Below are positions 5,548 to 43,715 of a stretch of 64,000 nt of DNA, in pieces. The stretch comes from Balanoglossus misakiensis (lineage: Eukaryota; Animalia; Hemichordata). Position numbers and translations under genes: made by a program. The stretch's first letter is position 1; the number at the start of each line of letters is the position of its first letter. The DNA is taken from NCBI GenBank assembly GCA_040954595.2, contig CM082587.2, positions 11,289,403 to 11,353,402 on the forward strand. The letters are read 5' to 3'. A model generated the notes under the pieces. It searched no databases. It was not told the DNA's origin and saw only the letters and a program-made list of their open reading frames with translations.

Positions 5548-5880
5548 AACACCATGAGAAATATTTTTGTAAAATGAGATATCCTGAATTTTTATGTTTT
5601 CCAATGAAAAACCAAAATAATATTTGCTATCAACATATTTTGAATATTTACCTCTCCTAATTTTTAAAAAATCTTCTTTGATACAAGAATGATCTAAAAT
5701 ATGTTTTTTCCTGCTATAAAAATTAGAGTTTGCAAATGATCATGGGTAACCAAATATTTTTTCAGACAATTCACCTAGGTTTATTTTTGTTTCTTCTGTT
5801 GGATTTTGATTTTTTTTTTTATAAAATGTGAGATGGCCAGTAGCACTGAGAATAAGAAACTATGGTGCTACGACTCTACC

Positions 5881-7928
5881 ACCTTGCTAGGGCAGAGAAT
5901 AAGTACCCCTGGACCTTGCTAGGCCAGTGAATAAGTGCCCCTGGACCTTGCTAGGGCAGAGAATTGGTACCCCTGGACCTTGCTAGGGCAGAGAATAAGT
6001 ACCCCTGGACCATGCTAGGGCAGAGAATTGGTACCCCTGGACCTTGCTAGGGCAGAGAATAAGTACCCCTGGACCTTGCTAGGGCAGAGAATAAGTACCC
6101 CTGGACCTTGCTAAGCCAGTGAATAAGTGCCCCTGGACCTTGCTAGGGCAGAGAATTGGTACCCCTGGACCTTGCTAGGCCAGTGAATAAGTACCCCTGG
6201 ACCTTGCTAGGGCAGAGAATAAGAACCCATGGACCATGCTAGGGCAGAGAATAAGTACCCCTGGACCTTGCTAGGCCAGTGAATAAGTGCCCCTGGACCT
6301 TGCTAGGGCAGAGAATTGGTACCCCTGGACCTTGCTAGGGCAGAGAATAAGTACCCCTGGACCTTGCTAGGCCAGTGAATAAGTGCCCCTGGACCTTGCT
6401 AGGGCAGAGAATTGGTACCCCTGGACCTTGCTAGGGCAGAGAATAAGTACCCCTGGACCTTGCTAGGGCAGAGAATAAGAACCCATGGACCATGCTAGGG
6501 CAGAGAATAAGTACCCCTGGACCTTGCTAGGCCAGTGAATAAGTGCCCCTGGACCTTGCTAGGGCAGAGAATTGGTACCCCTGGACCTTGCTAGGCCAGT
6601 GAATAAGTACCCCTGGACCTTGCTAGGGCAGAGAATAAGAACCCATGGACCATGCTAGGGCAGAGAATAAGTACCCCTGGACCTTGCTAGGCCAGTGAAT
6701 AAGTGCCCCTGGACCTTGCTAGGGCAGAGAATTGGTACCCCTGGACCTTGCTAGGGCAGAGAATAAGTACCCCTGGACCTTGCTAGGCCAGTGAATAAGT
6801 GCCCCTGGACCTTGCTAGGGCAGAGAATTGGTACCCCTGGACCTTGCTAGGGCAGAGAATTGGTACCCCTGGACCTTGCTAGGGCAGAAAATTGGTACCC
6901 CTGGACCTTGCTAGGGCAGAGAATAAGTACCCCTGGACCTTGCTAGGCCAGTGAATAAGTGCCCCTGGACCTTGCTAGGGCAGAGAATTGGTACCCCTGG
7001 ACCTTGCTAGGGCAGAGAATAAGTACCCCTGGACCATGCTAGGGCAGAGAATTGGTACCCCTGGACCTTGCTAGGCCAGTGAATAAGTACCCCTGGACCT
7101 TGCTAGGCCAGTGAATAAGTGCCCCTGGACCTTGCTAGGGCAGAGAATTGGTACCCCTGGACCTTGCTAGGGCAGAGAATAAGTACCCCTGGACCTTGCT
7201 AGGGCAGAGAATAAGAACCCATGGACCATGCTAGGGCAGAGAATAAGTACCCCTGGACCTTGCTAGGCCAGTGAATAAGTGCCCCTGGACCTTGCTAGGG
7301 CAGAGAATTGGTACCCCTGGACCTTGCTAGGCCAGTGAATAAGTACCCCTGGACCTTGCTAGGGCAGAGAATAAGAACCCATGGACCATGCTAGGGCAGA
7401 GAATAAGTACCCCTGGACCTTGCTAGGCCAGTGAATAAGTGCCCCTGGACCTTGCTAGGGCAGAGAATTGGTACCCCTGGACCTTGCTAGGGCAGAGAAT
7501 AAGTACCCCTGGACCTTGCTAGGCCAGTGAATAAGTGCCCCTGGACCTTGCTAGGGCAGAGAATTGGTACCCCTGGACCTTGCTAGGGCAGAGAATTGGT
7601 ACCCCTGGACCTTGCTAGGGCAGAAAATTGGTACCCCTGGACCTTGCTAGGGCAGAGAATAAGTACCCCTGGACCTTGCTAGGCCAGTGAATAAGTGCCC
7701 CTGGACCTTGCTAGGGCAGAGAATTGGTACCCCTGGACCTTGCTAGGGCAGAGAATAAGTACCCCTGGACCATGCTAGGGCAGAGAATTGGTACCCCTGG
7801 ACCTTGCTAGGGCAGAGAATAAGTACCCCTGGACCATGCTAGGGCAGAGAATTGGTACCCCTGGACCTTGCTAGGGCAGAGAATAAGTACCCCTGGACCT
7901 TGCTAGGGCAGAGAATAAGTACCCCTGG
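5881..7928. repeat. 32-bp minisatellite, ~64 copies (ACCTTGCTAGGGCAGAGAATAAGTACCCCTGG and variants)
   Basis: Directly visible; recurring variants GCCAGTGAATAAGTGCCC, GAATTGGTACCC, AAGAACCCATGGACCATG. Confidence 0.98.
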
Positions 7929-8497
7929 GGAAAAATAATAGACTCTCACAAGTAACAATTAGATTTCTCTTATTTATTTAGCATACATGACACACAGCAA
8001 ACTTAATGTGAACTCTTACGAATGACCTTGTAAAATCCCTTGGAGATTATTTCATGTATGATATAAATTGGGCAAATAAAATTCTTAAGCTGGAAAATAT
8101 TTCAAAGATTTCGTTAAAAAAAAAGATCAATCAAGCAGACAACAATTGAAAAAAATCTCTTCAAGGACACTGTGGTCCCATTGAGTTATTATACAAGAAA
8201 AAGTCTACACTGGAGTACATGGCCATATACCGACAGACAGACAGACACACACATAGCAAGGATCAATGGGCAAACACTGACTGACCCATAAGCTGCCAAT
8301 GGCATATGTACTGTACATACATTAAATAGAACAGCTGGCCTCTTTAAAACTTAGCCAGTTATGTAATCATTCAGGAATTTGTTGTGTTTATATGAAACAC
8401 AGGAGGGGAGTTCCTGCCTAATTAAAACAACTCAATAAAGTAAATACACACACCACTTTGCTAAGCAATCTGACCAGTAGTTCTTGAGTTACTGAGT

Positions 8498-8745: not shown

Positions 8746-8779
8746 AAATGGAAGTGGCCTATTGCAAAACCCCTGTCAC

Positions 8780-11110
8780 CTAATTAAAATCTTCTTCGCT
8801 TAAATATCCAGCTCCATTCCAGTGGAGTTGTTGCGTTGCTTGCGAATAGACTGCCTCCAACTCACTGCTGTCCGTCTCAACACATATACTTGGTCTTCCA
8901 AGATTCACCGCCGTTGTGAATACAGAGCCTGGAAATAAAAACACACAAGTACTATTTATAGTAAAAATTAAAATACAAACTGGCATCCATTCCTATGTCA
9001 TTGTTTATATAATATACAGCTTGCTTTGATTGGTAATTTGAGAAACCCAGTATATTTGATAAAATTTATCCTGTTTATCCATTGATTGTTGTGGAACCCT
9101 TTAACTACTTGTGGTTTCAAACATATTCAGCAGTAACTATTTTTCCTGGCAGATAATACGACTCATCTTCAATACATCAAAATGAAGCCTGTTTTTTGAA
9201 TGTGCTTAAAAAATTACATATGAAATGAAACAACTTCTCAACTAACCATATTATGACATGAAAAAAATCTCCTAATCATGTTTACTATTAGATAACCTTG
9301 CCCATTCATCAATTAAATCAGTCACTGTAAGTATTGAACCAGAGAACATGATAATGCGAAAATCAAATGTTTGTTGACTCTCCCCATATAATGCATTTTG
9401 TGTAACTATGTGGAAGCATTTACACTGTCAAAAGGAATTTAATAATATTACTTTTGCTTTGACTTTACAATAATTGTCTGTGTCCTGATCACAACTTTTT
9501 TCCCCATTCATTCTACTAATATGACTAGGTATTGTCTTCCATTTTACTATAATACCACTGCTTTAATTTAAAGTGACAGAGGCCAACAACTGGCAAAATT
9601 TTCTTTGGTTTGAATTGGACTGATGGATGATAAAATGTACACGTGAGTGACAGACAATCACAAAAATATCTTTGCCTGAAATGTATTGCATTTTTTTATA
9701 AAAATGGTCAATGATGAAAAGTGTATTCGTTGTGAATCTTACCTATACTTCTTGTAATGTCCAATACCCATCGCTTTTGACTGGAAAACACATTTATGAT
9801 GTGTTTATACATCTGTGTTTTGTCTTTCTTGTCATCTATAATCCACATATTATGGTGTGCTTCCTCCCCAAAATTTACTTGGGTAGCATTCACCTGTCCG
9901 TCTTCAGCCCAGTATCCAACCACTATACCATACACAGATTTCCATAGGGTCTTCTTGGCTGCAGCAATAAAACATAGAAATATTAATATAGATCTCAAAC
10001 CTTTAATTAAATGATTTAATGTGTGAGATTCCCAGTTCAATGAGAAAAATCAGATAAAGAGAAGCCAAGCATAAATCTTAATGTGCGTACAACAGATACA
10101 TACTGAACCTTCCATGTTAAAATGATTAAAATACTCTCAGCAGAAAACAATATCAAGCTCATTTAAGTTATTGAAATAAAAAAATATTAACAATTTTCTA
10201 AGCCTTTTGATCTTCAATGTGTTACGTGTTGATCATTTTACTCTGGTATTCTCTGAATTTGACCCACTAAATGATGGTACGTCATGTCAAAAGATATAAA
10301 ACCCTTAAAATAAACAACAAAGGCTATTTGAGGAAGGTGAATTGACACCTCCAAAATGTGCCATAATTATCCTATCATGGGGCTTAATTTTACTGGTATT
10401 TGAAACTCAACAGCCAAAAACAGATGACATCTAGCTGAAATTATAATACTTACATGATTTGTTATTTTTCACAAAGTAGAATGCCTCCTCTGTTTGAAGA
10501 CAAGTTTGTTTCAGGATGCTCCTGACCCCACGGATTTCATCTGTCTCGCAGAATACCACAACATTGTAGTACGGGACACCACAATCCAGATTTACAGCTT
10601 TTACAGTTGCCATTACTTTTCAAATATTTTCATCACCAACAATCTGTTGAGATATAGAATTTCAATGCAATGTTAAACTTTAATCAGCACCACTGTCATG
10701 TCATGAAAGATAATATAACATTGATACCGTGAGGTATATTGCAGTCTGAACTTGACTTCAGTTCACAACAATAACAATGTCAACTGTACACATGTCATGC
10801 AGATAAACTATATAATGGGTATTTCATTATGCTTCAGGGATTTGACATGGAAACAAATATTACAACAAAAATGATTTAGAATTAAATATAACTTGAAGCA
10901 TGTGTACAAATATCCAAAATTACATAACAAGTGGAGCTCACATGCACTGGTGTACAGTTCAAGCCTTTACATTAAAAAATTCTGTGCATGTAATTTTATA
11001 AAATCAATCTCTCTCTTAATCTTACCTCATCCATATTAATGAGAGTGAGTTCAGCCCCTGTAAAGTCTGGACAACAGGCCTTGATTTCCTTTGCATTTAA
11101 GGAAGTAACA
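8780..11110 (-). CDS. Exons encoding beta-class amino-methyltransferase-like fold (probably catalytically degenerate)
   Basis: Spliced C-terminus MYKHIINVFSSQKRWVLDITRSIG|SVFTTAVNLGRPSICVETD follows the N6_N4_Mtase pattern (L..II..FS..GDxVLDPFxGSGST..AA..LGR..IGxE); upstream CVLNTDV...GAELTLINMDE sits where motif IV (DPPY) is expected but lacks it. Confidence 0.6.
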
Positions 11111-11699
11111 TCAGTGTTTAGTACACAACCTCGGGTACCATCTTGTCCAGTGAAAATGTTTGTGGCATCAGATTCTTGAACACTGTCTTGCGCATCAAGG
11201 ATCCCCCTGATCTTCTTACATTCAGTCACCATTTCTGCTGGTATTCCTCTGCTGAATGACAAGTCCTTGAACCGGCTAAGATACTCTCTGCCGGCATACT
11301 CAGGTAATTTTTCTGAAAATATCTGCCATGGCATCTGAAGTTCTTTCATCATATTCTGTTGTATAACCTTCATCTTTTTTACATCTTTTGCTTCTCTATT
11401 CATCTCCTGCAGGCTCATCTCCCCCTCTCTGACATTTTGGAGAAAATCACTGACTGTATCTTCATTTAGGAGAACAAGGTTGCTAAATAGATATACAGGT
11501 ATATCAGGTTTAGCCATCAAAGTTTTCTTGGTGAATTTTTGTCCTTTTAGAGTCCCCGTCTCATATGCATCAAAGATATCATCAAGCGTGCTGGCAATAT
11601 CCGGACCCAGTCTTGCAAGATTTAGGATTGTTTCAATATCTTTGTCATTCTGTGAAGGAAACAAAAAATTTTCTATTTTCGTTTCTGTTAGTAAATACT

Positions 11700-11843
11700 T
11701 ACCTTTGATCCAACCTATAGCCTAATATATCTCGCCCTCTAACGACCGCTGAGATAAAAAAACTTTCCCCTGATTACGTCATACTCACCGAGTACATATA
11801 CCACCTGTCCAGCCGTGAATATTCAGTATTGCTCAGCACGAGA
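11700..11843. repeat. DIRS 3' inverted terminal repeat
   Basis: Reverse complement of 17149-17296 with few mismatches. Confidence 0.95.
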
Positions 11844-11954
11844 AATAACTGCTCAGGCCGAAACTATGCTGCCCACGCACTGAGGACCCATCCAAAATTT
11901 ATGAATAATGGAAAAACAGTCACAGGTCAAGTGTGGGGAGGCGGGTGGGTACCT

Positions 11955-12053
11955 GGTTGGATCAAAGGTAAGTATTTACTAACAGAAACGAAAATAGAAA
12001 ATTTTTTGTTTCTATGGCATAAATACCATACCTTTGATCCAACCTATAGCCTA
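11955..12053. repeat. DIRS internal complementary region (ICR)
   Basis: First half is the reverse complement of the element end from 11659, second half the reverse complement of the end at 17316, joined through TTT. Confidence 0.95.
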
Positions 12054-12126
12054 CAGAGTCCCAAGGAACAACTGGCGGTGGGACTTGAACCGAAAAAACA
12101 AAATTCCAACAGAAAGAACCAGGCTA

Positions 12127-14331
12127 TTACTTACTGTGAGCTACCCTTTGAGCTACACAGATAGGACCCAAGGAAAATAAGCCATCTGCTTCCGCTGCCA
12201 TATCTCGCAGATAAGCAGAGGAAAAAGTAGTCTGTGATCTCCACTGGACTGCAGACAATAAATCAGCCATGGAAGTCCCTGAAAAAAGTGACCATGAAGC
12301 AGCAAGAGCTCTGACTTCATGAGCTGACACCTTAGCCCAGCTAATTGCTTCTTCTGAAGGGCTAGAATAAGCAAACTTAATAGTCTCGACGATCCATCTG
12401 GAAATAGTCGACTGTGAAATAGACATACTGGGTGTAACCCTAATGGAGATAAACAGTCTTGTCTGCTCTCCCCTCCTGTCTTTTGTTCTCTGCAAATAAT
12501 ACTTCAGTGCTCTGATAGGACAGAGCAACCTATCCTCTGAACGCTGACCGACTAACTTCGTCAGTTTCGGAATAACCAGAGGCGATTGTGGCAGATCCGC
12601 AATCCGATTCTTTGCCAAGAAAGCTGGGTCAGTAAGCAAAGTGACACTGTCTGCTGACCAACGAATATGAGCTGAAGCCATAGACAGGGCATGAAGCTCA
12701 CTACGGCGACCTGCCGTAGCTAATGCCAAAAGAAAAACAGTCTTGTACGTCAAGAACTTCATCTCTGCTGTTTGCAAAGGTTCAAATGGAGCTCCTAATA
12801 AAGCATGTAGAACCAAAGATAAACTCCACTGGGGAACCAGTGACTTTACAACTGGTCGCGCCAAAGAGAAATTACTAATCAAAGCAGAAATAGACCCGTC
12901 CAGGGTAGTAACTTCCTCACCCAACAATCGAAGTGTGTTACCTATAGCTGAACGGTACGCCTTAATAGTGCTCACTGCTGTCTTTTTCTCCCTAAACAAG
13001 TAGAGGAAAAAATCTGCTAGCTGAGGAGGCGTGGGTCTGAGAAAATCAATCGACCTTTTCTCACACCAATGACGAAAGGAACACCACTTTGAATCATATG
13101 CTGCCGTGGTGGATGCTCGTCGGCGTTGTGCGATGCGCGAGGCAGCTTCTGCAGAAAAGCCTCTTGCCTGAAAACTGAGCTTGATAGTCTCCAAGCGTGG
13201 AGGTGAAGGTGTTGTGCTACCGGAGGCAGCCGAACAGTCTCCTCCATGCAATTGTGTGGTAATGTCAGTGGACAGTCCACCAGTAACTGGAGTAGTCTTG
13301 GAAACCAAGGACGTGTTGGCCATAGTGGTGCAACTAGAAGTATTTCGCATTCTTCGTGTGCTACCTTGGAAATTACCCTGGAGATCAACGGTAGTGGGGG
13401 AAATGCATATGCCAACATTCCCTTCCAGCTGATTGACAGAGCGTCGCATGCTAGTGCTTGTGGTTCCGACCTTAGTGACGCGTAAATCGGGAACTTGCGA
13501 TTCTTGGCTGTCGCAAATAGGTCTACGTGGGGCCTGTCCCAAATCAGACAAATCTGCTCTACTAGCGGTTGCCGTAGAGCGCACTCTAGTGGATATAACT
13601 TGTCCCGTGATAGAGCATCTGCCAGAATGTTGCTTGTGCCCTGAACGTGGAGTGCTTTCAGCGTGATGCTGTTCGCCTGGCACCAATTCAGCATGTCCCA
13701 TACCAGATAACACAGGCTGGGTGATCTGGTGCCGCCCTGGTGATTTATAAATGCGACTACTGTGGTGTTGTCTGACCTGATCAGAATCACCTTGCCGCAA
13801 ATGTCTTGGTGAAAGTGGAGAAGTGCATACTGTACTGCCTTCATTTCCAACCAATTTATGTGCCGCACTGACTGGTCGACTGACCATATCCCTGAAATTG
13901 TCCTGTCTCCCAAGTGTGCACCCCACCCTTGGAGTGATGCGTCCACAAACAGTGACACCGTCGCCAACGGGGATACTAGGGGATTTCCCTCGAGAGTATT
14001 CCCCCTGTCTAGCCACCATTGCAGGTGTGAAACTAGAGGTGGCTTTACCTGAATAAGGTCTGTCAACTGACCGGATACCGGCCTCCAATGAGCCAACAGG
14101 AACAGTTGAATTGGCCTCATATGTAGTCTGCCTAAAGGTATTGCCTCGGCTAGAAAGTTCATGCGACCCAGGATGCTGAGCAATGTGCGTGCTTGGACCA
14201 TGGACTCTGAACTGATCCGATGCACTTGTTGTTCTAATTTCAACAGGTTTTCCTCCGTAGGGAAAACTAAACCCTTGGACAGATCCATGACCATGCCAAT
14301 GAACTGGATCCTCTGTGAGGGGATTAGACAA
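12127..14331 (-). CDS. DIRS tyrosine recombinase ORF (5' part overlaps pol)
   Basis: RRASTTAAYDSKW core-binding region; catalytic R (GRRSEL), HEVR, W, Y (AYLRD); LLCPIRAL motif. Confidence 0.95.
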   Translation of the reverse strand: MSNPLTEDPVHWHGHGSVQGFSFPYGGKPVEIRTTSASDQFRVHGPSTHIAQHPGSHELSSRGNTFRQTTYEANSTVPVGSLEAGIRSVDRPYSGKATSSFTPAMVARQGEYSRGKSPSIPVGDGVTVCGRITPRVGCTLGRQDNFRDMVSRPVSAAHKLVGNEGSTVCTSPLSPRHLRQGDSDQVRQHHSSRIYKSPGRHQITQPVLSGMGHAELVPGEQHHAESTPRSGHKQHSGRCSITGQVISTRVRSTATASRADLSDLGQAPRRPICDSQESQVPDLRVTKVGTTSTSMRRSVNQLEGNVGICISPTTVDLQGNFQGSTRRMRNTSSCTTMANTSLVSKTTPVTGGLSTDITTQLHGGDCSAASGSTTPSPPRLETIKLSFQARGFSAEAASRIAQRRRASTTAAYDSKWCSFRHWCEKRSIDFLRPTPPQLADFFLYLFREKKTAVSTIKAYRSAIGNTLRLLGEEVTTLDGSISALISNFSLARPVVKSLVPQWSLSLVLHALLGAPFEPLQTAEMKFLTYKTVFLLALATAGRRSELHALSMASAHIRWSADSVTLLTDPAFLAKNRIADLPQSPLVIPKLTKLVGQRSEDRLLCPIRALKYYLQRTKDRRGEQTRLFISIRVTPSMSISQSTISRWIVETIKFAYSSPSEEAISWAKVSAHEVRALAASWSLFSGTSMADLLSAVQWRSQTTFSSAYLRDMAAEADGLFSLGPICVAQRVAHSK

Positions 14332-15206
14332 GACTTATCTGTGCTCGGAATGAACCCCACACGAACGGTCTCCCGTAGTGTGGTTTGTGTGTCTGCCAGT
14401 GTCAACTGGAAACTGGAATTGTGTAGCAACCAGTCGTCCAGGTATGGATTGGCTTGTACTGCTCGGGAATGAAGAAAAGCCATCAACGCCCCTACTACCC
14501 GTGTAAAAATAGCCGGGGCAGTGGCCAAACCGAACGGAAGAGCCACAAACTGGAACAGTTTGCTCCCTATCGCAAAGCGAAAGTACCTCTGGAAGTGAGC
14601 ATGGATAGGAATGTGGAAATAAGCGTCCTGCAAGTCTATCGTCGTTGCCCAATCTCCCGTGGAGAGAGCCTGACGAATAGTTCGAGTGGTCTCCATACGG
14701 AAAGACTCGATTATAATGTACTGATTGAGCACGCTCAGGTCCAAAATGGGTCTCCATCCCTGTGATTTCCTTTGAATAAGGAAAACACGACTGAAAAACC
14801 CCGTATCCTGAACTGGTAAAGGGACCTTTTGAATGGCCCCTTTTTCCAACAGCCCCTGTATGGCCCTCCACATAGGAGGGGAAGGGTGCGATACCAAATG
14901 ACTTGGAGGATACAACGAAAGGGGTGGAAACGTCCTGAAGAATAGACGAACCCCTTCCGAAACTAAAGAGAGGACTGTTTGGTCGTCTGTAATTTTCTGC
15001 CATTCCTGGGCAAAATGTTTCAGACGACCCCCAACTGCTACCTGTGGCAATGGTGTCTGGGGCATAGTCACAGATTGTGACCCCATTACCCCTTTGTCCT
15101 GACTTGTGTAGTCACTTGTGCTGGCTGCTAGCCCCTTTGGGGGGCTTAGCCTGCTGACGAAAGGGCTGACCCTTCCTTTGCTTGTTAAATGGTCTCTTCC
15201 TAGCAA
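13017..15206 (-). CDS. DIRS pol: reverse transcriptase, RNase H and Dam-like methyltransferase (MT) domain
   Basis: IDLQDAYFHIPI, LPFGLATAP, YLDD; RNase H FVDASLQGWG, HINWLE, SDNTT; MT VDLFAT...YAFPP...VAPLWP. Confidence 0.97.
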   Translation of the reverse strand: MLGRDHLTSKGRVSPFVSRLSPPKGLAASTSDYTSQDKGVMGSQSVTMPQTPLPQVAVGGRLKHFAQEWQKITDDQTVLSLVSEGVRLFFRTFPPLSLYPPSHLVSHPSPPMWRAIQGLLEKGAIQKVPLPVQDTGFFSRVFLIQRKSQGWRPILDLSVLNQYIIIESFRMETTRTIRQALSTGDWATTIDLQDAYFHIPIHAHFQRYFRFAIGSKLFQFVALPFGLATAPAIFTRVVGALMAFLHSRAVQANPYLDDWLLHNSSFQLTLADTQTTLRETVRVGFIPSTDKSCLIPSQRIQFIGMVMDLSKGLVFPTEENLLKLEQQVHRISSESMVQARTLLSILGRMNFLAEAIPLGRLHMRPIQLFLLAHWRPVSGQLTDLIQVKPPLVSHLQWWLDRGNTLEGNPLVSPLATVSLFVDASLQGWGAHLGDRTISGIWSVDQSVRHINWLEMKAVQYALLHFHQDICGKVILIRSDNTTVVAFINHQGGTRSPSLCYLVWDMLNWCQANSITLKALHVQGTSNILADALSRDKLYPLECALRQPLVEQICLIWDRPHVDLFATAKNRKFPIYASLRSEPQALACDALSISWKGMLAYAFPPLPLISRVISKVAHEECEILLVAPLWPTRPWFPRLLQLLVDCPLTLPHNCMEETVRLPPVAQHLHLHAWRLSSSVFRQEAFLQKLPRASHNADEHPPRQHMIQSGVPFVIGVRKGRLIFSDPRLLS

Positions 15207-16863
15207 ACTTCCGTTTGCCGGTGAACTTTGACCCAGAGACAGAAGACTGAGCCTGTGCTACTGCTAACTGTTCTACAGCCAACTTCTGCTTAAGCAACTC
15301 CTCATTTGTTCTAAGAACAGCATCAAATTGCCCATTAAAAACCAATGGACCTGACCATGGGAGAAGACGGGCAGTACGAGCTGCCTCCCTTTCCAAAGGA
15401 AGATGACTGATAAGATGGTCACGCGTCATCAACACTTGAGACGCTGCCATACGAGAATTCAATTCTGCTTGATAAACCACAGCCTTAGCGGCTTCAGTTA
15501 ACAACAGTTTGGCATGCTGCCAATTTTCTGCTATCTGAGGAGTAGATTCACCCTCCTGCATGGGTTTAAGCTCTCTGCTTAAAGCTGAGAGTAACAGAAA
15601 AGTGCAATTAGAGATCCTTGCGGAAAGACGAGTAGTTGCCTCTAAGCGGGCAAAATCCTCAGCCCTAATCACATAATTCCTCAAAACCTCTTTATTTCTT
15701 ACCAACTGCTTTGCGGATTCATCAACCGCTGGTGAAGAGTGGTAGAATGGTCCACGTGTAAGATCAAACACGCGACTACCCTGAGGTCTAGACACCAATG
15801 GGAAAACATGACTTGGCATCCCTTGAGGGTAACAACGAGGTTTCTTGTTAGCAGTGTAACAAAAGTCCCTGGTGCCGTTAATCTCGGCATGTACCGTGTC
15901 TATCAGAGACGACAGACGAGGAATAAAAGGTAGCTTTCGGTGTACCGGATCAGCTGCCTTACCCAACACATGTTCAAAAGAAGCCGTCAGCTGTTCTGCC
16001 GACACTTCAGCAGTGGGTGGGGGACATTCCTCAGGGGGTACAGTATTATACACTAGCATAACCGCGTCAGCCCATTGACTGGCGCGACTAGTTTCCTCTT
16101 GATCGGACAAACTGTCTTCGTCCTCATCCTGCCCCTCTGACTCCGATTGTGAAACATCGAAGGAGGAAATAGGAGGGGCAGGGACAGTGTGACCACTGTG
16201 CACAGGATTTTGGCCCGACACAGAGACCCGATTAGCTTGAGCAGGCATACCCCAGCTTGTGGACTGAAGTGGTGCCGCCAAATTAGAGGGAGGACAAGTC
16301 CATGGGAAACCCCACGACTGTTGGAAGCCCGGAGGGGGAAAATTCCCACCAGCCTAAGCGACTCCCGAAGCTAATTGGTCTGGTACACACATAGGGGGTG
16401 GGCCGTGAAGCCCTCCCCACACACTACCGGCACTACCTATGGACGTCGAAGGCACTGGATTAGCCAAGACGGAGGTAGGAACCGTATGAAAATACCTAGA
16501 AGACATACCTGCATAATTCGGCCAAACACCTGACTGAACAGTTTGCGCCGATGAAACACCTCCCAAATGAGACGGACCCGGAACTGCTGCATCCAAAAAG
16601 GAAGAAACCGGCAAAACAGGAGTTTCTGCAACCGTCCTAGCAGCTGATGAATCCAACTTGGATCGCTTCGAAGCGAGCGAAGCCCTAGCAGAAGCATGGC
16701 CGCCATCTTGGGATGACCCCCTAGCTAACTCAGAAAAAACATCAGGCTCTTCAGAGTGCGCTGAATGGAAAGCTTGACCCGGAATAGGCAGTTGAGAGTC
16801 TTCTATTTCCGAAGGAGTACGAGAAGACGACCGCGACGCGGTGTCAGAAACTCTCTCCGTCAT
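15112..16863 (-). CDS. DIRS gag-like ORF1 with a single in-frame TAG
   Basis: ORFs 16354-16863 and 15112-16281 are in one frame: ...DQLASGVA*AGGNFPPPGFQQSWGFPWTCPPSNLAAPLQ...; position upstream of pol. Confidence 0.85.
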
Positions 16864-17148
16864 GGTTCCAGTGAAAACACGAAAAAATGCACGGGCAAAA
16901 ATGGCTTCTGAAGGCTATATGAAAAGACAATACCGCAGAAGCCCTACACACTGACCCGTACACGTGCGGGAAAAATCCGAAAAACAAACTTTGCAAGTGC
17001 CAAAATAACACTAGCAAGCAGTTTAGAAAATAAGTCGTTACTTATCTACTTCCCCAATCGAAAAACCTCAGGCGAAAAGCAGCAATGGTCGAAGGGCTGA
17101 GCACTTCTTGACAAAAATCCAACACCTCAAGAGAGAAGATGTCCGCTG

Positions 17149-17296
17149 TCTCGTGCTGAGATAATAATACTGAATATTCACGGCTGGACAGGTGTTATGT
17201 GTACTCGGTGAGTATGACGTAATCAGGGGAAAGTTTTTTTATCTCAGCGGTCGTTAGAGGGCGAGATATATTAGGCTATAGGTTGGATCAAAGGTA
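17149..17296. repeat. DIRS 5' inverted terminal repeat
   Basis: Reverse complement of 11700-11843. Confidence 0.95.
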
Positions 17297-24048: not shown

Positions 24049-24932
24049 ATTGTCTGTTCGTTTTTTGGTGTGCCAGCATTAGTAATGTCTTGCTGACCTT
24101 TTACTATTGTTCCTTTATGTATTCGTAAGTCCTTTTCACCTCTGTCTCTTCTAGATTTTAATTCATTTCTAAGTTTTCTGTCTTCTTCTCTCTGTTCGTA
24201 GGTAAGATCTGGTGATATGTATACATTCTTGTACATTTCTTCTGTTGACTTGGCTAAATGTTTAGCTTTCTGTAGAACCTGGCGTTTTGTTTTTGTGTCC
24301 TTCAACTTGACTCTTAGCAACCTGGGCCTTTTATCTTCAGATCTTTTGCTTGTAGACAGCCTTTCAACTTCAACAATATTTTCATCTGAGAGACCAAGTT
24401 CAGACATCAGACCGGACACTTGCCTAACATCATCACCCCTTACCAGACTTGCCATGCTGTCATCGGGTTCCGGCATATTTCTTACAATGACGTTTAGCTT
24501 CCGCTTTTCGACCTCAATAGCGTTGTTTACTATCTGTTGCACTTGAGCTTTATCGCAGCTTTTCTCCTTCTGACCTATAAATTCTTCTTTCAACTCTTCC
24601 TCTAATGTGTCTTGACGTAGTTGAAGATTGTTCATGACATTAAATAAGCGAACAGCACCATTATTGCAGGCTTTGCAAAACCAATGAATTGTCATATTTG
24701 TATCGTTTGAGACAAGAACCGTGTACAACTCCTTTGATACTCCTTCACATGCTATATGGAACCAGTTCATACATACTTCACACTGCAGAGCTTCGTCATT
24801 GTCTTTCACCTCCTTTCGACAAGTACCACAAGTATAAGTTTCTTTGTTTGCCTTTGACTTCGTCGACGTCGATGTACTGTTCTTCCTCGCCGCATTCCTC
24901 GTGACCGCGACCGTCACCATCTTGGAAGTCAT
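24045..24932 (-). CDS. LINE ORF1 with PHD finger, coiled coil and RRM-like region
   Basis: CGTC...LQCEVCMNWFHIACEGV...WFCKAC; KRKLNVIVRNMPE, RPRLLRV, VYISPDLT motifs; stop overlaps ORF2 ATG (ATGA). Confidence 0.92.
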   Translation of the reverse strand: MTSKMVTVAVTRNAARKNSTSTSTKSKANKETYTCGTCRKEVKDNDEALQCEVCMNWFHIACEGVSKELYTVLVSNDTNMTIHWFCKACNNGAVRLFNVMNNLQLRQDTLEEELKEEFIGQKEKSCDKAQVQQIVNNAIEVEKRKLNVIVRNMPEPDDSMASLVRGDDVRQVSGLMSELGLSDENIVEVERLSTSKRSEDKRPRLLRVKLKDTKTKRQVLQKAKHLAKSTEEMYKNVYISPDLTYEQREEDRKLRNELKSRRDRGEKDLRIHKGTIVKGQQDITNAGTPKNEQTI

Positions 24933-25812
24933 TGCGCAATGGCCAACAACGTTCACACTTCAAACGGCCAATTTTCTTCACTGTTACTGCCCATATAAAT
25001 GATTTGAGTCAACAACTGTGGTCAGTAGCAACTCATGAGTGATACTAGACCTAGTATCACTACAAAAACACAGTCAACCGGGAAAATTTTCTTCTCCTAT
25101 CGGCTGCGACTTGACAGAAATTCCCTGCGCAGAAGCGCCCTCAAACTTGATCAACTATAAAGTCGTGATGAGTTGTACACATTATCGGTAAACAACAGAA
25201 ATAAGTTATCAAATAAACGGGTGACATTTTGTCTGAAAAATATGCAGTTAGTTACAACTTACATCCATACCACGCGTCACACAAATAGTCAAGTCTGATT
25301 GTGATTGTAATGGCGTTCGGTCGATATCAATATATCGTGGGTGTGACAGGGTTAGATTACAACCGATCATTTCGACGGGTTTTATTACACAGACGCATTG
25401 CTTTTAAACAATTATGCTCTTTCTAAATTAATACCTTTATTGAAATTGCCCAGCATATATAGCTTGATTAAAGTTTGTTTTACAAAGTGTGAAATGCGAC
25501 TGTTTTATTTGAGGCCTAACCACCCTCCACGTATTTACGTGTTCGATTACGGATGTGACGTAAGAGGGCAACCGGAACAAAACGTGCGACGGTCCCTGTT
25601 TACACACAGTGCAAGTTCGACTATTGGCCTGAAGATTTATCTCAAGAGAAACTCTGGGTCTAACGCAATTTTTGCAGCGCGAAGTCTCATTACTCCTGCT
25701 ACGACTGAGTGGCCGTGCTCTGATCGACGTCGGCGAACACGCTAGATAAAGGTAGGTACCGGTAAATTACGCCTGTGAAGCTAGTGGTAGTGAACGTTTA
25801 GCTGGCCGTTCA

Positions 25813-25898
25813 CTAGCTCTGGACTTATGCGCTGTTTGGGTCTACGCTGCTCTCCGTGGAGCAGCGTAGACCCAAACAGCGTACAAGTCCAGAGGTAG
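25813..25898. repeat. Short palindromic hairpin / MITE-like element
   Basis: CTCTGGACTT..GCTGTTTGGGTCTACGCTGCTC-loop-GAGCAGCGTAGACCCAAACAGC..AAGTCCAGAG. Confidence 0.8.
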
Positions 25899-28800
25899 CT
25901 GTTCACGTACATGTACGCCAACGTACTAATATATACCACTCAAACAGAACCGTCCCACCCGTACCCGCAACCACGTGTAAATTCTCTGTGTACAATAATG
26001 TTGTTCACATTTCGACCTTCATGTTGTAAGTTGACTTTTCATAATTTTGTCTCCAGCGGAAATTTAAAGCTCAGATTCGCAACATTGGGTGGCGACGTCT
26101 CTGATTTGCATTCACTCTTTGAATTTTGTCAAATACCAGTTTATTGACACGAACGGCCAGGTGTTGGCGGAAGGCACTTCTGCAGCTGCGTTCTATATGC
26201 AAATGTGACTTTTAACCATTTGACCTAGTACTTGTCGTTTACCTTTTCAAATAGGTGCTAAGTAAATATTACCACTGACATGTTGCACTCCTTGCAAAAA
26301 AACAAACAAAATCAAGACTCCCAACTTTGACTTTTTTCGTCACAATATAGACAGTAAATATACCTTGTGCTGTCAAATATCACAGACTAAACATTTCCAA
26401 AACAGATTTTCTGAAAGAAAGGATATTTTAATCAAAACAGCCAGCTGGATTGGCACCTACATGTAATATCTAGACAGCAACTTGCAGGAGACACCAAACA
26501 CAAACACATCATGACAGAGCAGGAGAGCTGTCTGGAAACCAATGTTTTAAATTCTGGTTAATCTTTATGATTACTTTTAGTGGAAAAGAAACAAATTATT
26601 AAATCATGAATCATATTTGTGTTTTCAAAACAATTATCCTTTTGAATTATCAAAAATGATAAGTGCTTCAAATATTGACTGAAGGAAATTGTTATCAGTC
26701 AGTGTATGAGCACAGAATAAAAATTGTCACTACACAGGCATAAACATGCTGTATTTAAAGCAAAATATCAGACAATTCAGCATGCTAATGAAATGTTGAC
26801 AGCACAGAGAATAAATAATACTAAAAGAAAACAGTATTCATTATAAGTGTGCCTCTTTTTGTCTTAATAATATAGGTTCCATGGATTCATCTTGTTCAAC
26901 ATTTGTTGAGCAGAGTTTTTCATCAATTGCAACAATACCAAGTGAGAAGACCACCAGCACGTTTGTAGAAAGGTCTCTAAATTCTTCTGTAGAATCACTA
27001 GAAGTAGAAGGACAAGATGACTCTCTGACACTTGGCGGTAACAGTGACCTTGGCAATGATGTCCATTATCTCAGTCCACAAGAAGAGGCCATATGCTCTT
27101 CTTTTAATAATTCTTTTGAGAGCATAAATGACGTTGATGGAAACTTGGCAATGGGGATGATATCATTACATCAACGCCTGTAAAGCGACGTCGCTACTCT
27201 GCACCGATGAGGCGGCCAACAGATGTCCTACAAATGGCGTGCTGTGGGGATAGATGTATGGAAACTCTGTCTCTCAATGACATCACAGAGTCTGAACAGA
27301 TTTTCAAGACATCGCTAAATGAAACTGAACTAGGACATTATATCCTGAGACAAATTCGGCAACACTCATATACGCACCATGGGAAAACTGGATCCAAACT
27401 AATTATGAATCTAGTTATTCGTGGAAGATGTGTATGTGAGGTTGCATGGTGCAACGTGCATGACATAACTCACCGCAGATTTACAAAGTATGCAAATCAA
27501 GTAAAACTTGGTGTCACCCACATATCACATGGAAACCGAGGGAAAAAGAGAATGCAGGAGAAGACATCTAGAGCAATATCATGGATGCGTTTTCACTTTG
27601 AAAGGATAGGTGAATTCATGCCACATAAGAACATAGTACGCCTTCCTACATTCATGGAGAAGTATGATCTTTGGGAACTTATGAAGACACACCTGATGGG
27701 AACTACATTCTACTCACATATATCATATGGCTACTTTTGTGATATCTGGAAGAAGCACTTGCCTGAATTTCGTACTGGGAAGGTAAGTTTCCATTCTTTT
27801 CACACTTACAAGCTATAAAAAAGCTTCACAAATTTGTGTATTATTAACATGATTCCTGACATGAAAGTGTCATAGTATTTTTTACATTGAACATCGTATT
27901 CAAGGACTGGAGGTTAGTCAGTCAATAATGAAGTGCAGTGAGAATGACTTCCTTTCTGTATTTATGTGTGTGTTCCAGTAAAATTACAGTTTCCAGCTCT
28001 ATTCCCTCAGGATTTATGAGATAACCAACACACTACAGTAGTTCCCCTAAAAAAGCACTACTACTTACAATAATTGTTTTTAAGTGATTTTTAGTGAGAT
28101 TTTCAACAATGTTGTCTGCACAGATAAAAATAAGTTGAATGTGTTTGTTGCATAATATATCAGTGCCAACAAGTATAAGAATTTAGTAAAGTGAAGTGTG
28201 TGTCTTTATTTTACAGTCGTCCGACTTTGCTGAATGTGATGACTGTGCCCAGATTAGAAATGCAATATCCTCGGCCTCCACGGATGTTGAACGGGAAAAT
28301 CTGCTCAAAGTTCGTGAAATTCATGAAACAAGGGTTGAGTAAGTTGCATCATTATATGTCTCTTTTTGTACAGTTGCTGTATTTTGTATGATTTTTTTCT
28401 GAATCAGGTATCATAGAATGGGCACAATGCCTACAATTCATGTTTTTTTTTAGACAGAGTAACGTTTTACGGTAAATTTCGAAACCCATAGATTGTACTT
28501 CATCACTGAGACAAGAAAACTTAAAGTGATTTTAAACTTTTTTTTCCTATCAAAGTTGGCAAGTTTTAGCAAAATGTGCAAAGTAGAACACACTGTGACA
28601 ATATTTATAGCGCACATACTAGTATTATACAGTTTCTAATATAATATGTATGAATTATTATATTAATATAGATAATATTATTACTTTCCTTTTCAGAACA
28701 GAAAGGGCAGTTTATCACAATGCCCGAGAAAAAGCAGTGCGGCAACCTGATGATCTATTGGGTATCATTATTGATGGGATGGACCAAAAAAGACATATTT

Positions 28801-29092
28801 TCCAAGGCTGGTACGAGAGAAAAAGCACACTGAAAACCTTGGGAAAGTGCCAATGCATGCAACAGGTATTCCATTTTAATATAAGCCACACTAATACAAT
28901 GGTCTTTATGTAACTCACTTGACATCTGTCTATCCAGACAATTAGTAAATAGGTGAGAATGGTCCAGATGATAAATGTCCAGGAACCACAATCTGACACC
29001 AATCCAGTAGCAGATGAAGTAATTACATGTATGGGTGGACAGACCACAGGTGATCGTGGACTTGTGCTGTCACAGGGGAGTTCTGTTTTAGA

Positions 29093-29172
29093 TGCTACCA
29101 GAGCGAATGGGGGGATCTGCTAGGAGCGACTTCCGACGCTCCTAGCAGATCCCCCAATTCGGTCTTGTAGCA
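29093..29172. repeat. Intronic palindromic hairpin / MITE-like element
   Basis: GGGGGATCTGCTAGGAGCG-loop-CGCTCCTAGCAGATCCCCC with TGCTAC...GTAGCA outer arms. Confidence 0.8.
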
Positions 29173-30603
29173 ATTGCGTAAGGTGAGAATTGATCATACC
29201 ATAAATTTCAGTATAATATTTAAAACATTGATTGAAAAATGTGATTTTTTCGCAGGAAGTCTAATCCATACTAATGTTCCTGAAGGAAAGCTTGCTGTTA
29301 TGCGGCTGGATGTTCACAATTTTCCTCATGATTCCAACATGACAATAAACAACATTATGTGGAATTTGGTGGACAACATTGACAGACTTTCACGGCAGCT
29401 TCACCTCCAGCTGGACAACTGCTACAGAGAAAATAAGAACAGATATCTCCTTTCTTTTGCATCTCTGTTGGTAGACTATGATGTCTTTGAAGAGGTATGA
29501 TGATTTAACTCATTCTTTTTTATATTTCAACTCGTCACATCCTATTAGTCATGGTACTATATACACACCTGCAGCCCACAGGATCATATGTCGCCTGGCA
29601 TGTGTATATGTATATGTATAATGATTAGCTAAACATTGAAAGAATCCCACCTTGTTTCAACTTTGATGGGTGGATTCATTACTGCTTGAAAATTTGTTTC
29701 CTCTGAAAGAGCACTGATGTATCATAACTTGCAATATATTTGCCATAGATTCAGAAATGGCACTTACATAGATTTTATGCATTTTTGAAGTGTTTTCTTG
29801 ATATTGAACAAATAGTTCTCTCAGAATCATTTGGATACTAAACAATGGAGTACAGTATCATTATCGCAGCTTTAATATGTTGAAACAAGGAGAAACAGTA
29901 TTTATTGCTACATTCTTGCAGTAAAAGTCCCCTTTCATGACCCCAGAATGACCTATGTAGATTACTTCTGGGTGCTGACATTGGGGTGGTTGTCTGCCAT
30001 CTTGACTAAGGCCATGAAAGTGGCCTATTATTGTAGTTGAAAAATTGGTCACTACTTTGTCAATATCCAGTATCTCACATGAAGATTGAAACAGTATTTT
30101 CTGTCACTTTCAGGTTGTGCTGAACTTTCTGCCAGTAGGACATACCCATGAGGGTAAGTTCTTTACACATCTTGGTCACTGCAGATCCTACTGTGTAGTT
30201 TAATTGATGTTTGTAGATGCAAAAGACAATTATCTGACATGAAAAATATATTCCAACTGCCTCAAGATGGGGGCAATAAATTGTATGACAAAATATTTTT
30301 ATTGTCAGTTTAAAATGTTCATACTAGGAATCAAATTATGTTCTCATAAACAGTAAACTTGTATTACAAAGGAAAGAAATCAGGCCTTTTAATTAATATA
30401 ATGAATTTTTGAAGACTTTTTTGTCTAAGTTTAACAAAAAATTCACACTTCAAGGTCTACTCTGTTAATATTTTGTACACTTATCACTTATCTTAATGTA
30501 CCCTTTTTGCATTGTAGATATTGACCAGATGTTCAGCAGAGTGTCCACAGCTCTGAAGAGAACAAATTCTTTCACTTTACAAGGTATTGAATTTAGGATT
30601 ATT

Positions 30604-30757
30604 TTTAGCAAAAAATCATTCTTAGTCACCTGGCGGGTATACACTCGATTTGGGTACAATTCGCTCCATATAGCACTCGCCTGACGTCTCGTGCGATATG
30701 TCTTGAATTGTACCCAAATCTCGCATATACCCGCCTGCGGCGGGGGTTATTGCTTAA
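30604..30757. mobile_element. Intronic hairpin MITE ending in TTATTGCTTAA
   Basis: GGCGGGTATA..GATTTGGGTACAATTC / GAATTGTACCCAAATC..TATACCCGCC arms around GCACTCGCC..CTCGTGC; imperfect terminal repeats. Confidence 0.6.
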
Positions 30758-30769
30758 CTAAGTAATTAA

Positions 30770-30923
30770 AGCCTCCAGCTGTATAGCTGCCAAATGGCGC
30801 TTTTTTTCATGATTTTTCTTCCAAACTTGCATTAATTCATATCAATAAGCTTACCGTATATGTATATATGAACGTCTTACCAAAATTTGATGCAAAAATG
30901 CAACTCTGACAGATATAGGGGCT
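30770..30923. mobile_element. Kolobok-like MITE (TTAA target duplication, AG...CT termini)
   Basis: TTAA|AGCCTCC...GGGGCT|TTAA with imperfect short TIRs. Confidence 0.5.
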
Positions 30924-33900
30924 TTAAACTATTTATTTTTTGGAGTGGAACTGCATATCCCAATTAACATGTTTTATAGATCTACAAATTTATTAGTTTT
31001 CATATCAATCTTAGAAAAGGCATTGTGAGTTACTGAAATGCATTCATTATATATCCAAAGTGTATGTACAGTCAGTAATATTAATATAGTGGACTGTTAT
31101 TTTGTGACTTTATCCTTTCAGAATTAATGCACAATGTGCATGAAAGTTACACTCCAGCAATTAAGGTACAGGAAGTAAAGTACATGTTCAATGTGAAAGA
31201 GTGGCTTCAACCTTATATGGCAGGCAGGTTTGGAGGGCATTCTAGGCCGCACAATTTTCGATTTCGAAAGGTCAATGGAAGAGCCAGAATGCACTACCGA
31301 TTATGGTCGACAGATGCATGGCAACCAACGTATGAAGGTGATGGTGAACCTGCACAAGGACTTGTATGCCTTGAGGTAAGTTGTTTCACATTAAAATGGA
31401 TTTCAACATAGTGCCATCAATGGCATTATGCTAACTTATTTTAAATTGCAAAGTTTAGTTTGAATTATAAATAATACTATTAGAGATAGTATTAGTTTCC
31501 ACATGTGTCCAAAGTGCACAACTTTCAGTAGTTTGCCTTCTAAAATAAGAATCGCATGCCAAACTAGGCCTGCACAAACGTTGTAGGTAGTAATTCCCCA
31601 AATGTGGAAATCTGCTGGTTAGGGCATGGTTAGGACATTATAAGCGAAGGTGTGAACGTCTTAGTCAACACACTGACTGAAAATGTATAGAAAGATGTTG
31701 GTTGTTTATAAGCGGGCAAATGTCAACCACACTTTGTCATTGTTATGTTAATCACTGTCTACCAACAGAGTTTGTGCAGAGGGTTTCCCTCATGCTTATT
31801 CACATATCATGGATTAAGTTAGTGTATTTGAAATCATAGCCACATGGCTTCTATAACAAATATCATAATGAAGCTTTTTTCACAGTAGCCTGCAAGCCAA
31901 TTCAGGGGCATGGTCTATTGATACTTAAACCTTATGTGACCTAGTTATATTGAAGGTGCCAATGTTGCTAGCACTGTGTATGCTATGGGTTGATGAAGGC
32001 ACGGTTACAATTACAGATCACAGCAAGTCTTGATGCTACTGTTCTTCAAATTCTCTATTTCCACAGACTGTGCCAGATGTCAATGATGTTCCGGAAATGG
32101 TTGAACCCTCACTCCTGAAACTTGATCTACAGAAATTAACCCATGATATACCAAACAAATATGTTGACTACATGCCACAGCAAACTGTTGAACATTTACG
32201 AGAATTCATGGGTAACATTGCACAGTATGGACAGGTGAGATGGACTTACAACTATGTCATTATCTACTTATTTTTGTCATTAAGCCAATATTTTGAATAC
32301 TGGGAGCAGAAGTGGATCACTTTGACTGGTTCAATCAGTCCACACTGTGTTCAATAGTATATAATTGGTATTCATGGGTCTGTGAAGTAAAATATATCAA
32401 AATTACTCCCGTGTTCAATCTTCATGCTCTTGATGCTTTTTTTGGATCGGTCTCTTTCTAACTCATAAACTTATATTCAGGTTATATTTTGCATTGCACC
32501 ACAATGCTGTAAACCTTACAAACCCATGGTCTGGCTTTAATTACTTGAACCCAGTAAAAGGTTTTAAAGTGACAATCTGAAGAAAATGTGTGAATTATGT
32601 AAAATTGTATAAGAAGGCAGAAGTGCAGAAGTAGTAATTTCTTGAACAGTGAACACAATGCTCTCAAAACATAACAGATTACAGTTTTGGATGTTTTTAT
32701 GTTTTTTGATGATTAATCTAAATTATAGATTTTTTGATGATTGTCCTTCACAATAATTTGTAAGTTAAAATACTCATCACTCGTTATTGTTTGGATATTG
32801 TACAGGTGACTGAACAAGCTGATGAGTGGCCTATGCAACAATTAGTTGAAGCTGCAAGGAGACAATGGAGTGCAAGAGTTACAACTGCTGGTGATATTCC
32901 TGAGAATGTTCAAAGAATTCAGGACTGGATGGAATCTGTGTGTCCTCCTGTAAGTCTGACCACCAAAATTCCCAACTGTTCTCAATTAGTTTTTGCCTAC
33001 ATGTACATGTAATTACACTCCCAGGGACTAATGTTACCATCTAAGAAGGAAACTTGGGAGAAAAACATGGGTCTCTGATCGTTTTCAGTGGATTGTGTTA
33101 TTGTACAACATTTGCCTAGATTTCAACTGAGAACAAGTACCATCTTTATCTTTATTTGCAAATCATTCACAAATCCTAAGTATAAGAAGAACCTGCACTT
33201 TGGGATAGAAACCAATATTTTAGATACATGTATGTTGAAACAAATCTTTGACTCAAAATTATACTGGTACAATGATCTGCTGCTACACCTGGGGGGGGGG
33301 GGTCACCTGGGATTGGTGTGCCATAATTATACATGTATGCTACACCAATTAGCAAACATTAATTAATATTGGTGTGCAATTAATTGGAAGTATATGTTGG
33401 CGTGGCCATAAAATCAAGAGTCAACTACATTCTTTCACCCATTCGGTGCAGTGATTGCATTGTGGTTTTCTTTCAAAAATGTCTTATGCCAATGATAAGG
33501 GCCTTTTGACATCACTGGTAACAAACTGAAAGTGAATCACTGGTCTCATTCCAACTGTAAATTAAGTCCCAGATTAAGACAAGTAACTTGACACATTTTG
33601 ATTTCCCCAGGTAATTATCGGCAATCAAGGGAACAGAGCTGCTGAAGCTGAGATTGTAGAGGACTACTCAACACTAGATGTGGGAATGTTTGTGGCTGTT
33701 TTTTGCCCAGCATCAGAGGAGGTACCGCATATCGGTAAGGTTGTTGACAGAGATGAGACATCCTTTACTATCCACTGGCATAATGGGACTTGGAACTCTG
33801 CTTGGAAACCCAGCTATATAAGTAAAGGAAGACGCAAAGTTCCCTGGGAAGACAAGCAGGATATGGCAGCAGCAATCCTCTGGGACTTCAAATTAACAGA

Positions 33901-34678
33901 GAAGAAAACACTAACGAAACAGACAAGAAGTATCTTGCAAAAAAAATACCAGAGACTACAGTCACAAACATAGTATTTGACAGGGTACCAGGTCGAAGGG
34001 AAGACACTTCATTAGGCTGCTGCTCAAAGTTAAACTTTTGGACATAATGTTGATTGCTTACAATTTCCTGAGGTTCTGACATTCAGGCATTACACTGCTG
34101 CATTTTATTTATATACTTAATGATTGATTCATTTACAACATTGTGTTTGACACCTTTCTTTGATCAAATTTCAGTGCGTATGTGTGCCGCATGGACCGTT
34201 GATAAGCTTAGTACATTGCTTAGTTACATGCCATTGAGTACATGCGAAACTTGTCATTTTCCTTGATATACAGCTTGTCAGTACACTGTATCAGCAGGGT
34301 CTGCAGTTTTTGAAGGAAAAGAAATAAAACGAAAGTACATAGACAAGCACAAGTGTTGGGTTTCACACTTTTATGTGCCAAGATAATGTCACTGTTGTCA
34401 GATTCTTCAGCGCGCATGCCGCCTGACTAAAGGACGCAAAATGGCTGATGTGTAGAAGAAGGAAAAACCTCTGACATTTACAATCCAACTTAATTCCCTT
34501 AATTCTGCATAATTATTGTTGGAAATTGAATGAAAGTCTGTACTAAAACTCATTTGCCAGCAATAACAGCGGTCATTACAATCCTTCCAATTTGAAGTTG
34601 ACTTTGTAATTCAGCATACACACAAGTTGAACAGGAGAAAATTAATGTACATTGTCATATTTTAATGCCATCAATCCA

Positions 34679-34830
34679 TGGCAAAGAAATAGCACCCCTC
34701 GCAAACTTCAGGGCAGAGAATTAGTACCCCCACAAATTTCAGGGCAGAGAATTAGTACCCTTGCAAATTTCAGGGCAGAGAATTAGTACCCCCACAACTT
34801 TCAGGGCAGAGAATAAGTACCCCCACAAAT
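34679..34830. repeat. 31-bp minisatellite (~4.5 copies) sharing the core of the 5881-7928 array, same orientation
   Basis: AGGGCAGAGAATWAGTACCC at 34710, 34741, 34772, 34803. Confidence 0.95.
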
Positions 34831-36640: not shown

Positions 36641-36721
36641 ACTTAGAGCTTAGATGGTCCTATAAAGCTTATTAAACTTGTGCACACTTCAAATAGGCCG
36701 AAAATGTCATGTGTACGTAAA

Positions 36722-42128: not shown

Positions 42129-42235
42129 AAAAATATAAAACATGCGACCTTGATTAATGAGCAACCTATCGACCAAACCATACATAAAGTTTTGTTGAGC
42201 TTGATACCGTCCAGAGTTCTGGCCCGACGGCCAGT

Positions 42236-43676: not shown

Positions 43677-43715
43677 ATAGTGAAATATAGTCACTTTGGA
43701 ACAGTATTTTTGAAA

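Follow-up and report, generated by a model that had tools for sequence, protein, structure and literature searches.

Sola1-1_Ec32, reported in 2025 from the seaweed Ectocarpus, is a DNA transposon of 21.5 kb whose transposase is accompanied, on the other strand, by a gene of ParB-like and N4/N6 methyltransferase type (PMC12477816). The sections of that paper on which we draw give it AACCG-CGGTT termini, terminal inverted repeats (TIRs) of 282 bp and a target site duplication (TSD) of 4 bp that is merely biased to end in A; they cite proteins like its partner from green and red algae, propose that the methyltransferase marks its own element, and describe giant families generally as holding nested insertions and pseudogenised transposases. 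For Sola1, the part of PMC3845634 used here gives a TSD of 4 bp, often AWWT. A ParB-like gene, PAG3, is also described beside inverted-repeat arrays in a Plavaka element of Bostrychia, which belongs to an unrelated superfamily (bioRxiv 10.1101/2025.02.11.637652, in the portion consulted). But is a transposase with a ParB-like partner a matter of algae alone? Here we analyse a window of 64,000 nucleotides from the hemichordate Balanoglossus misakiensis (contig CM082587.2, positions 11,289,403 to 11,353,402), in which a block of non-satellite DNA very probably represents a two-gene transposon. With a probability of roughly 0.6, we read this block as a giant DNA transposon of the cut-and-paste type, broken and likely truncated on the right, which probably belongs with Sola1 and encodes a DDD transposase and, head to head with it, a ParB-like helper. 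The original prediction, made from the letters of the window, held the architecture to be undescribed unless it matched a published family; at the level of design, Sola1-1_Ec32 is such a family, going by the same sections of PMC12477816.

The block and its two genes

The window is chiefly satellite DNA, whose 81-bp units make up a ~1378-bp higher-order repeat, and exactly 29,277 bp of it (5548-34824) is a block without satellite. The start first given for this block was exact, and its end moves from 34829, which falls inside a junction microhomology, to 34824. Removing a nested DIRS retrotransposon leaves 23,619 bp, and taking out a nested long interspersed nuclear element (LINE) of a further ~4.05 kb gives ~19.5 kb, as predicted. 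Besides these two insertions the block contains two head-to-head genes of ten exons each and two repeat arrays with one common core. The exons of both genes were placed by splice sites and homologs; all 18 introns follow the GT-AG rule, and tblastn with proteins of Ptychodera flava bears the exons out one by one, so that the two divergent, intron-rich genes stand. Both are broken in this copy, the transposase by frameshifts near 27150 and near 28790 and the partner by an in-frame stop at 10622-10620. Contigs from X1 and X2, runs of one sample that may be the window's own source, span both frameshift sites without indels. Depth in X1, which is not a copy number, is ~150 across most of the block and ~30 for several small variant contigs; this contrast hints at several near-identical copies of the block.

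The plus-strand gene was rightly recognised as a DDE/DDD transposase. DUF7869, which we equate with Sola1, matches two of its exon open reading frames (ORFs) with E values of 4e-21 and 3e-12, and the homologs P0006 and P0007 at 205 bits; the literature search returned no paper on DUF7869. The P. flava proteins match it at 61% in the N-terminal part and at 81-96% elsewhere. Across 38 aligned relatives D362 and D404 never vary, and at least 90% have D278. The model of P0007 (mean pLDDT 78.7) shows an RNase H core superposable on Mos1 and on retroviral integrases (Z 8-9, rmsd ~3 Å), a winged-helix region at 127-214 and a C-terminal SH3/BAH/Tudor-like barrel (Z 6-7), which corresponds to the last exon. 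These fold scores are middling, and Foldseek found no match to the model at E <= 0.001. The DDD triad and RNase H fold required of Sola1 transposases are both present. The barrel is possibly a chromatin reader, judging from the model; a tail resembling it was seen at two metagenomic loci, L012 and L067.

The ParB-like partner

The minus-strand gene is harder to place. Its exons match the closest P. flava subfamily at 71-89%, exon 10 matches P0005 at 56%, and a profile made without the five closest proteins still matches six of the ten exons. Pfam gave nothing above cut-off on any of its seven ORFs, nor on P0003 and P0005, and a PDB sequence search with the partner had no match. A profile search returned 291 clusters at E <= 0.001 (150 listed), and among ten clusters looked up relatives came from P. 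flava, Holothuria (2), Exaiptasia, Actinia, Mytilus (2, ParB part only) and Chara. Scans of viral contigs found no relative of either transposase or partner, and a metagenome scan with the partner found none of it. Of 27 homologs scanned, 6 pass the cut-off of PF01555, and P0009 has a PHROG ParB match (E 3e-4). What does the protein look like? Its fold was taken from the model of a full-length homolog, P0012 (pLDDT 74.4), which aligns with CcrM over 207 residues (Z 21.2, rmsd 3.0; beta-class fold range Z 18-21) and, at modest scores, with the ParB proteins PadC (Z 10.1), ParB-N (Z 8.2) and KorB (Z 8.0 over residues 118-374), and with Myxococcus xanthus ParB 7bnk at E 5e-6. The Rossmann fold of P0012 is permuted, motif IV lying ahead of motif I, and this order is collinear with the window exons. 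On these models the family would join a ParB-like N domain to a beta-class methyltransferase (MTase), and the domain call of the original prediction holds at the level of family and fold.

The methyltransferase part is degenerate. In the window and its P. flava relatives motif IV reads NMDE, DMDE or SIPE (NMDE in the window) and motif I DITRSIG or DATRKQG (DITRSIG in the window), and the QKP loop is absent from the window partner and its closest P. flava relatives. Among 17 scanned partner proteins a canonical motif IV occurs in two, from Chara (DLPY) and the metagenomic locus L047 (DPPW), and in none from a named animal; motif I is retained in six others. The ParB positions are a different matter. 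In rows picked by a profile from P. flava, R is kept in 39/44, two G in 61/64 and 62/65, H in 56/63 and HN in 58/60 and 55/59, that is 89-97% of covering rows, compared with 41-49% at motif IV of the MTase (D 28/68, P 29/59). On the partner tree, motif I kept or lost amounts to two changes and clusters no more tightly than in shuffles (81 and 69 of 500). The methylase domain of the window partner is likely inactive, to judge by its motifs, and because the methylase decays while the ParB motifs stay conserved, a non-enzymatic DNA-binding helper is favoured. ParB clamps that bind cytidine triphosphate (CTP) have an arginine-rich GxxRxxA motif; this was not found in the partner family or in the window.

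Linkage of the two genes in other genomes

Are the two genes one mobile unit, as had been proposed? In P. flava the transposase XP_070553722 and the partner XP_070553723 have consecutive accessions and lie on one contig of 50,616,078 bp; XP_070550176 and XP_070550177 are again consecutive transposase and partner accessions, on a contig of 1,169,915 bp. Five close partner proteins are found on five P. flava contigs. A metagenome scan with the catalytic core of the transposase extends this, taking the best 80 of 205 confirmed loci. A divergent ORF with the ParB motif (xxDGxHR) is present in seven of ten loci with more than 1.2 kb upstream, and also at L006, which has 1.1 kb and was included for that very reason; the motif is on the same strand at none of the 11 loci (shuffles: mean 0.09, maximum 1). 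Allowing for near-copies, and with 36 of 38 rows used, the paired loci fall into six lineages across the transposase tree. MTase domains occur at L012 and L047, the DPPW of the latter intact. Palindromic repeats surround the genes at L008, L009, L012 and L023, and at all of these except L012 they also lie between the two genes and behind the partner. Profiles of the animal partners gave only weak matches in the 80 loci (best E 3e-4). A TIR search at eight partner loci found four without room and no convincing TIR at the other four. The linkage bears out the proposal of one mobile unit.

Some metagenomic loci have features of their own. An OTU protease domain is joined to the ParB-MTase partner at L047 (711-4283) and L050 (3-1151) and is weakly matched on the transposase at L013 (1018-4812). 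At L044 (1670-5931) the DUF7869 core match adjoins a gene of bacterial type bearing a Por secretion tail, and is possibly a bacterial relative or a chance match. L074 (171-2848) has two convergent transposase-like ORFs on one contig.

Repeat arrays and ends

A 21-bp core, with up to five mismatches, is found in all 64 units of the left array and in five units of the right one, always on the plus strand; the rest of the 64 kb has none, in agreement with the single core reported at both ends. It is a spaced near-palindrome, GGGYA-N9-TRCCC, seen 63 times in the left array, four times in the right and four times elsewhere, compared with 3.5 expected by chance. Being near-symmetric, the core makes direct or inverted orientation of an array matter little. 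A unique stretch of 333 bp lies outside the left array and starts with AACACC; the left flank ends in TCAGG, not AWWT. By our reading of the tables, one X1 contig breaks off precisely at 5548, where an X2 contig goes on for 56 letters that differ from the flank in the window. On the left, 5548 looks like a genuine terminus with more than one flank, and a longer copy would look alike. At the right end the fifth repeat merges into satellite through a common ACAA(A)TTT microhomology, the satellite is short by at least 133 bp, and the satellite unit to the right of the block resembles the left units at 88%, compared with 98.5-99.3% among those left units themselves. Taken together, the microhomology, the missing satellite bases and the different satellite variant indicate that the right end of the element was likely removed by a microhomology deletion, which would best explain the absence of inverted repeats. 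As to the directly oriented arrays that gave the element its first description, all cores do lie on the plus strand; with a near-palindromic core and a right end seemingly deleted, this orientation is probably not a defining feature.

Several other classes were considered. CACTA/EnSpm elements have a CACTA/G terminus; here the left end is AACACC and DUF7869 is the only transposase-side match, with no EnSpm domain, and this class was rejected. Composites like KolobokP have long terminal direct repeats and a His-Me finger nuclease; they too were rejected: 177 and 191 of 200 shuffles aligned as well as the unique end stretches, and domain scans of window ORFs and homologs gave no match to a His-Me finger nuclease. 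Helitrons were dismissed for want of a Rep/helicase ORF in the block.

A proposed mechanism and its alternatives

How would such an element work? Cleavage by the transposase would fall at short inverted repeats that end the element; of these the left terminus would survive at 5548, and the right one would have been lost in the microhomology deletion, together with some of the satellite. The ParB domain would make the helper a dimer, its helical domain would read both half-sites of the core, and the protein would coat both subterminal arrays. That it binds the arrays at all we consider slightly better than an even bet. Coating might shield the element or keep it open, or might join ends 20-30 kb apart, the helper acting as a non-enzymatic accessory factor whose MTase fold would be retained as a DNA-contact or dimer module. 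The window copy would make neither protein intact; it could be mobilised only in trans, and lacking its right end it would be immobile. Rather doubtful, though worth stating, is a wider version: a ParB-type DNA clamp may be an ancestral, eukaryote-wide part of the Sola1-like lineage, in animals without methylase activity, gated by nucleotide, loading on parS-like (centromere-like) arrays at either end and pairing ends that lie tens of kilobases apart, and so enabling giant size and movement with nested cargo. If true, a bacterial segregation device would be running in animal nuclei.

What else could explain these data? Subterminal repeats are commonly bound by transposases, and within the same transposon the arrays could serve the transposase itself, the ParB-MTase gene acting elsewhere or being long-term cargo. 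A winged-helix region and a C-terminal barrel are present in the transposase model itself, and no array lies between the window's genes. We nevertheless think this unlikely: the partner is kept head to head in the window and the six metagenomic lineages with its ParB motifs conserved, palindromes at three metagenomic loci lie between the genes and behind the partner, and, in the portion of the preprint drawn on, PAG3 has inverted-repeat arrays beside it in an unrelated superfamily. Could the partner instead be active in N6-adenine/N4-cytosine methylation and mark the element it sits in, as the consulted sections of PMC12477816 propose for Sola1-1_Ec32? The beta-class fold of P0012, the PF01555 matches and the intact motifs of L047 and Chara speak for it; the altered motifs IV and I and missing QKP loop in the window and P. 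flava, together with the lack of a canonical motif IV in every named-animal protein scanned, make it improbable here.

A new superfamily whose ends are directly oriented arrays without TIRs would account for the missing TIR and TSD and for a block end that falls inside the right array. We hold it to be quite improbable, since unique sequence lies beyond the left array and begins with AAC as in Sola1-1_Ec32, since microhomology marks the right junction, beyond which the satellite is of another variant, and since the design is already published with TIRs and a 4-bp TSD (PMC12477816, sections as above). The idea that the minus gene is a host gene adjoining a transposase relic by chance in a duplicated segment draws on its many introns and on the few sequence variants among contigs, all from one sample. 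It has hardly any credit with us: the gene is multi-copy, with five P. flava contigs and consecutive placement to a transposase at two, it is embedded in satellite, and like pairing is seen on unrelated eukaryotic contigs.

The preferred reading, a Sola1-like transposon with a ParB-like helper, has several points weighing against it. The folds are those of a homolog, P0012 being 26-27% identical to the P. flava proteins, and not of the window's own proteins, and the motif GGxHxxA of the partner family is GGQYNF in the window, with Y for H. The P. flava accession pairs imply adjacency, not orientation; they cover two loci, which may be haplotypes, and three more close partner proteins are on three other contigs. 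Three of the 11 metagenomic loci have no ParB motif, and metagenomic partners resemble the animal family weakly, motif to motif (pairwise E 0.005-0.04, probability 1-7%), so that they may be separate ParB captures. L008, L009 and L023 have an intergenic repeat, whereas a scan of the 64 kb found no repeat copy between the window's genes. The dyad pattern was chosen after viewing the units, with half-sites of 5 bp, and neither TIR nor TSD was found at the two block ends. Finally, the element is likely of the Sola1 kind as set against Sola1 by description, not against curated Sola sequences.

Feature coordinates and surroundings

Table 1. Positions of the features in and around the block, numbered along the window.
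Feature	Coordinates	Strand	Remarks
Whole block	5548..34824	.	broken copy of a two-gene Sola1-type DNA transposon (probable) with nested elements, amid satellite DNA; limits from junction reading
Left terminus, likely true, and AT-rich subterminal stretch	5548..5880	.	starts AAC
Left array	5881..7928	+	64 x 32 bp, 9 unit variants, core GGGYA-N9-TRCCC
Partner gene	8780..20854	-	10 exons, ~830 codons, start codon uncertain
Partner exons 1-5	20854-20540, 20296-19914, 19313-19153, 18719-18550, 18316-18110	-	
Partner exons 6-10	17751-17668, 11649-11026, 10643-10454, 9958-9743, 8928-8780	-	
Partner domains			ParB-like N domain (exons 4-5), helical/helix-turn-helix region (6-7), degenerate beta-class MTase (7-10)
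Nested DIRS retrotransposon	11659..17316	-	inverted terminal repeats, internal complementary region, reverse transcriptase (RT)/RNase H and tyrosine recombinase ORFs
Nested LINE between both genes	21113..25170	-	5' end approximate; PHD-finger ORF1, endonuclease, RT, microsatellite tail
Transposase gene	26881..33973	+	10 exons; DDD triad, DUF7869, C-terminal SH3/BAH-like barrel
Transposase exons 1-5	26881-27782, 28217-28338, 28697-28865, 29256-29494, 30114-30153	+	
Transposase exons 6-10	30518-30583, 31122-31375, 32067-32234, 32806-32949, 33611-33973	+	
Insert like a miniature inverted-repeat transposable element (MITE)	30632..30760	.	high-copy, palindromic, within transposase intron
Small inserts resembling the MITE-like one	25813-25898, 29093-29172, 31555-31765		
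Right array	34680..34832	+	4.9 x 31 bp, core as in left array, passes into satellite; likely deletion junction

The DIRS element sits inside partner intron 6, adjoining its acceptor. It landed within the polypyrimidine tract of that intron, and its A-run recreates a plausible acceptor context (11651-11660, 17313-17330). Rfam gave no match across 5400-36200. The observed/expected ratio of CpG is 1.1 in satellite (window 1-5547) and 0.45 in the transposon core, and the left array has no CpG. A second non-satellite block of 11 kb lies at 36118-47108 of the window, with a 500-bp tandem duplication (37711-38708), a 67-bp minisatellite (41116-41488), 119-bp direct repeats (39784/42010), zinc-knuckle gag-like ORFs (42440-43676) and an RT ORF (43770-45377) that we take to be Penelope-like. 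A foldback-like element at 45350-47109 has long inverted arms made of 18-22-bp repeats.

Comparison with known systems

As far as we know, transposons with a ParB-methylase helper are in print from algae only, and the window is a deuterostome case. The literature search, with subscription journals and Repbase Reports outside its coverage, found no animal report of such a two-gene transposon, the Ectocarpus paper being the only match, and the parts of PMC4738411 consulted contain no such animal family. Relatives of the helper in sea cucumber, sea anemones, mussels and Chara, and a pairing that is common among transposase relatives, widen the picture. Loss of methylase motifs with conservation of ParB motifs argues against the published self-methylation as a general function, and the 32-bp unit offers a defined candidate binding site for a ParB protein in a eukaryotic nucleus.

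The homolog model shares its folds with the MTases CcrM, M1.HpyAVI, PvuII and bdelloid N4CMT and with ParB, Noc and KorB. Unlike beta-class MTases, the partner lineage has degenerate catalytic and S-adenosylmethionine motifs, and, set against ParB, Noc and KorB with their canonical arginine-rich patch, it carries His at that point of the ParB motif. Anti-silencing by VANC in VANDAL elements offers a functional analogy, an element-encoded protein acting on non-coding repeats of its own element; going by the sources in part, VANDALs are Mutator-type plant elements, their protein is unrelated, and the function is shown there but proposed here. PAG2/PAG3 of Plavaka come closer, with a transposon-borne ParB-like protein, tandem inverted-repeat arrays alongside, proposed binding to the own element and a PF01555 methylase (bioRxiv 10.1101/2025.02.11.637652, same portion). 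They differ in an EnSpm-type transposase, in having two separate fusion genes, ParB with a 2OG oxygenase and the methylase with SET, and in their red algal hosts. Closest is Sola1-1_Ec32, likewise a DNA transposon of ~20 kb with a ParB-MTase gene opposite the transposase and a left end in AAC; the likeness is one of description, not sequence, and is drawn from the sections of PMC12477816 used throughout. The window copy departs from it in its animal host, nine introns per gene, a 2-kb subterminal array, lost methylase motifs, and no TIR or TSD left. What is new here is the occurrence in animals, the breadth of the pairing and the decay of the methylase beside conserved ParB motifs; the two-gene design itself founds no new kind of element and extends to animals one known from seaweed.

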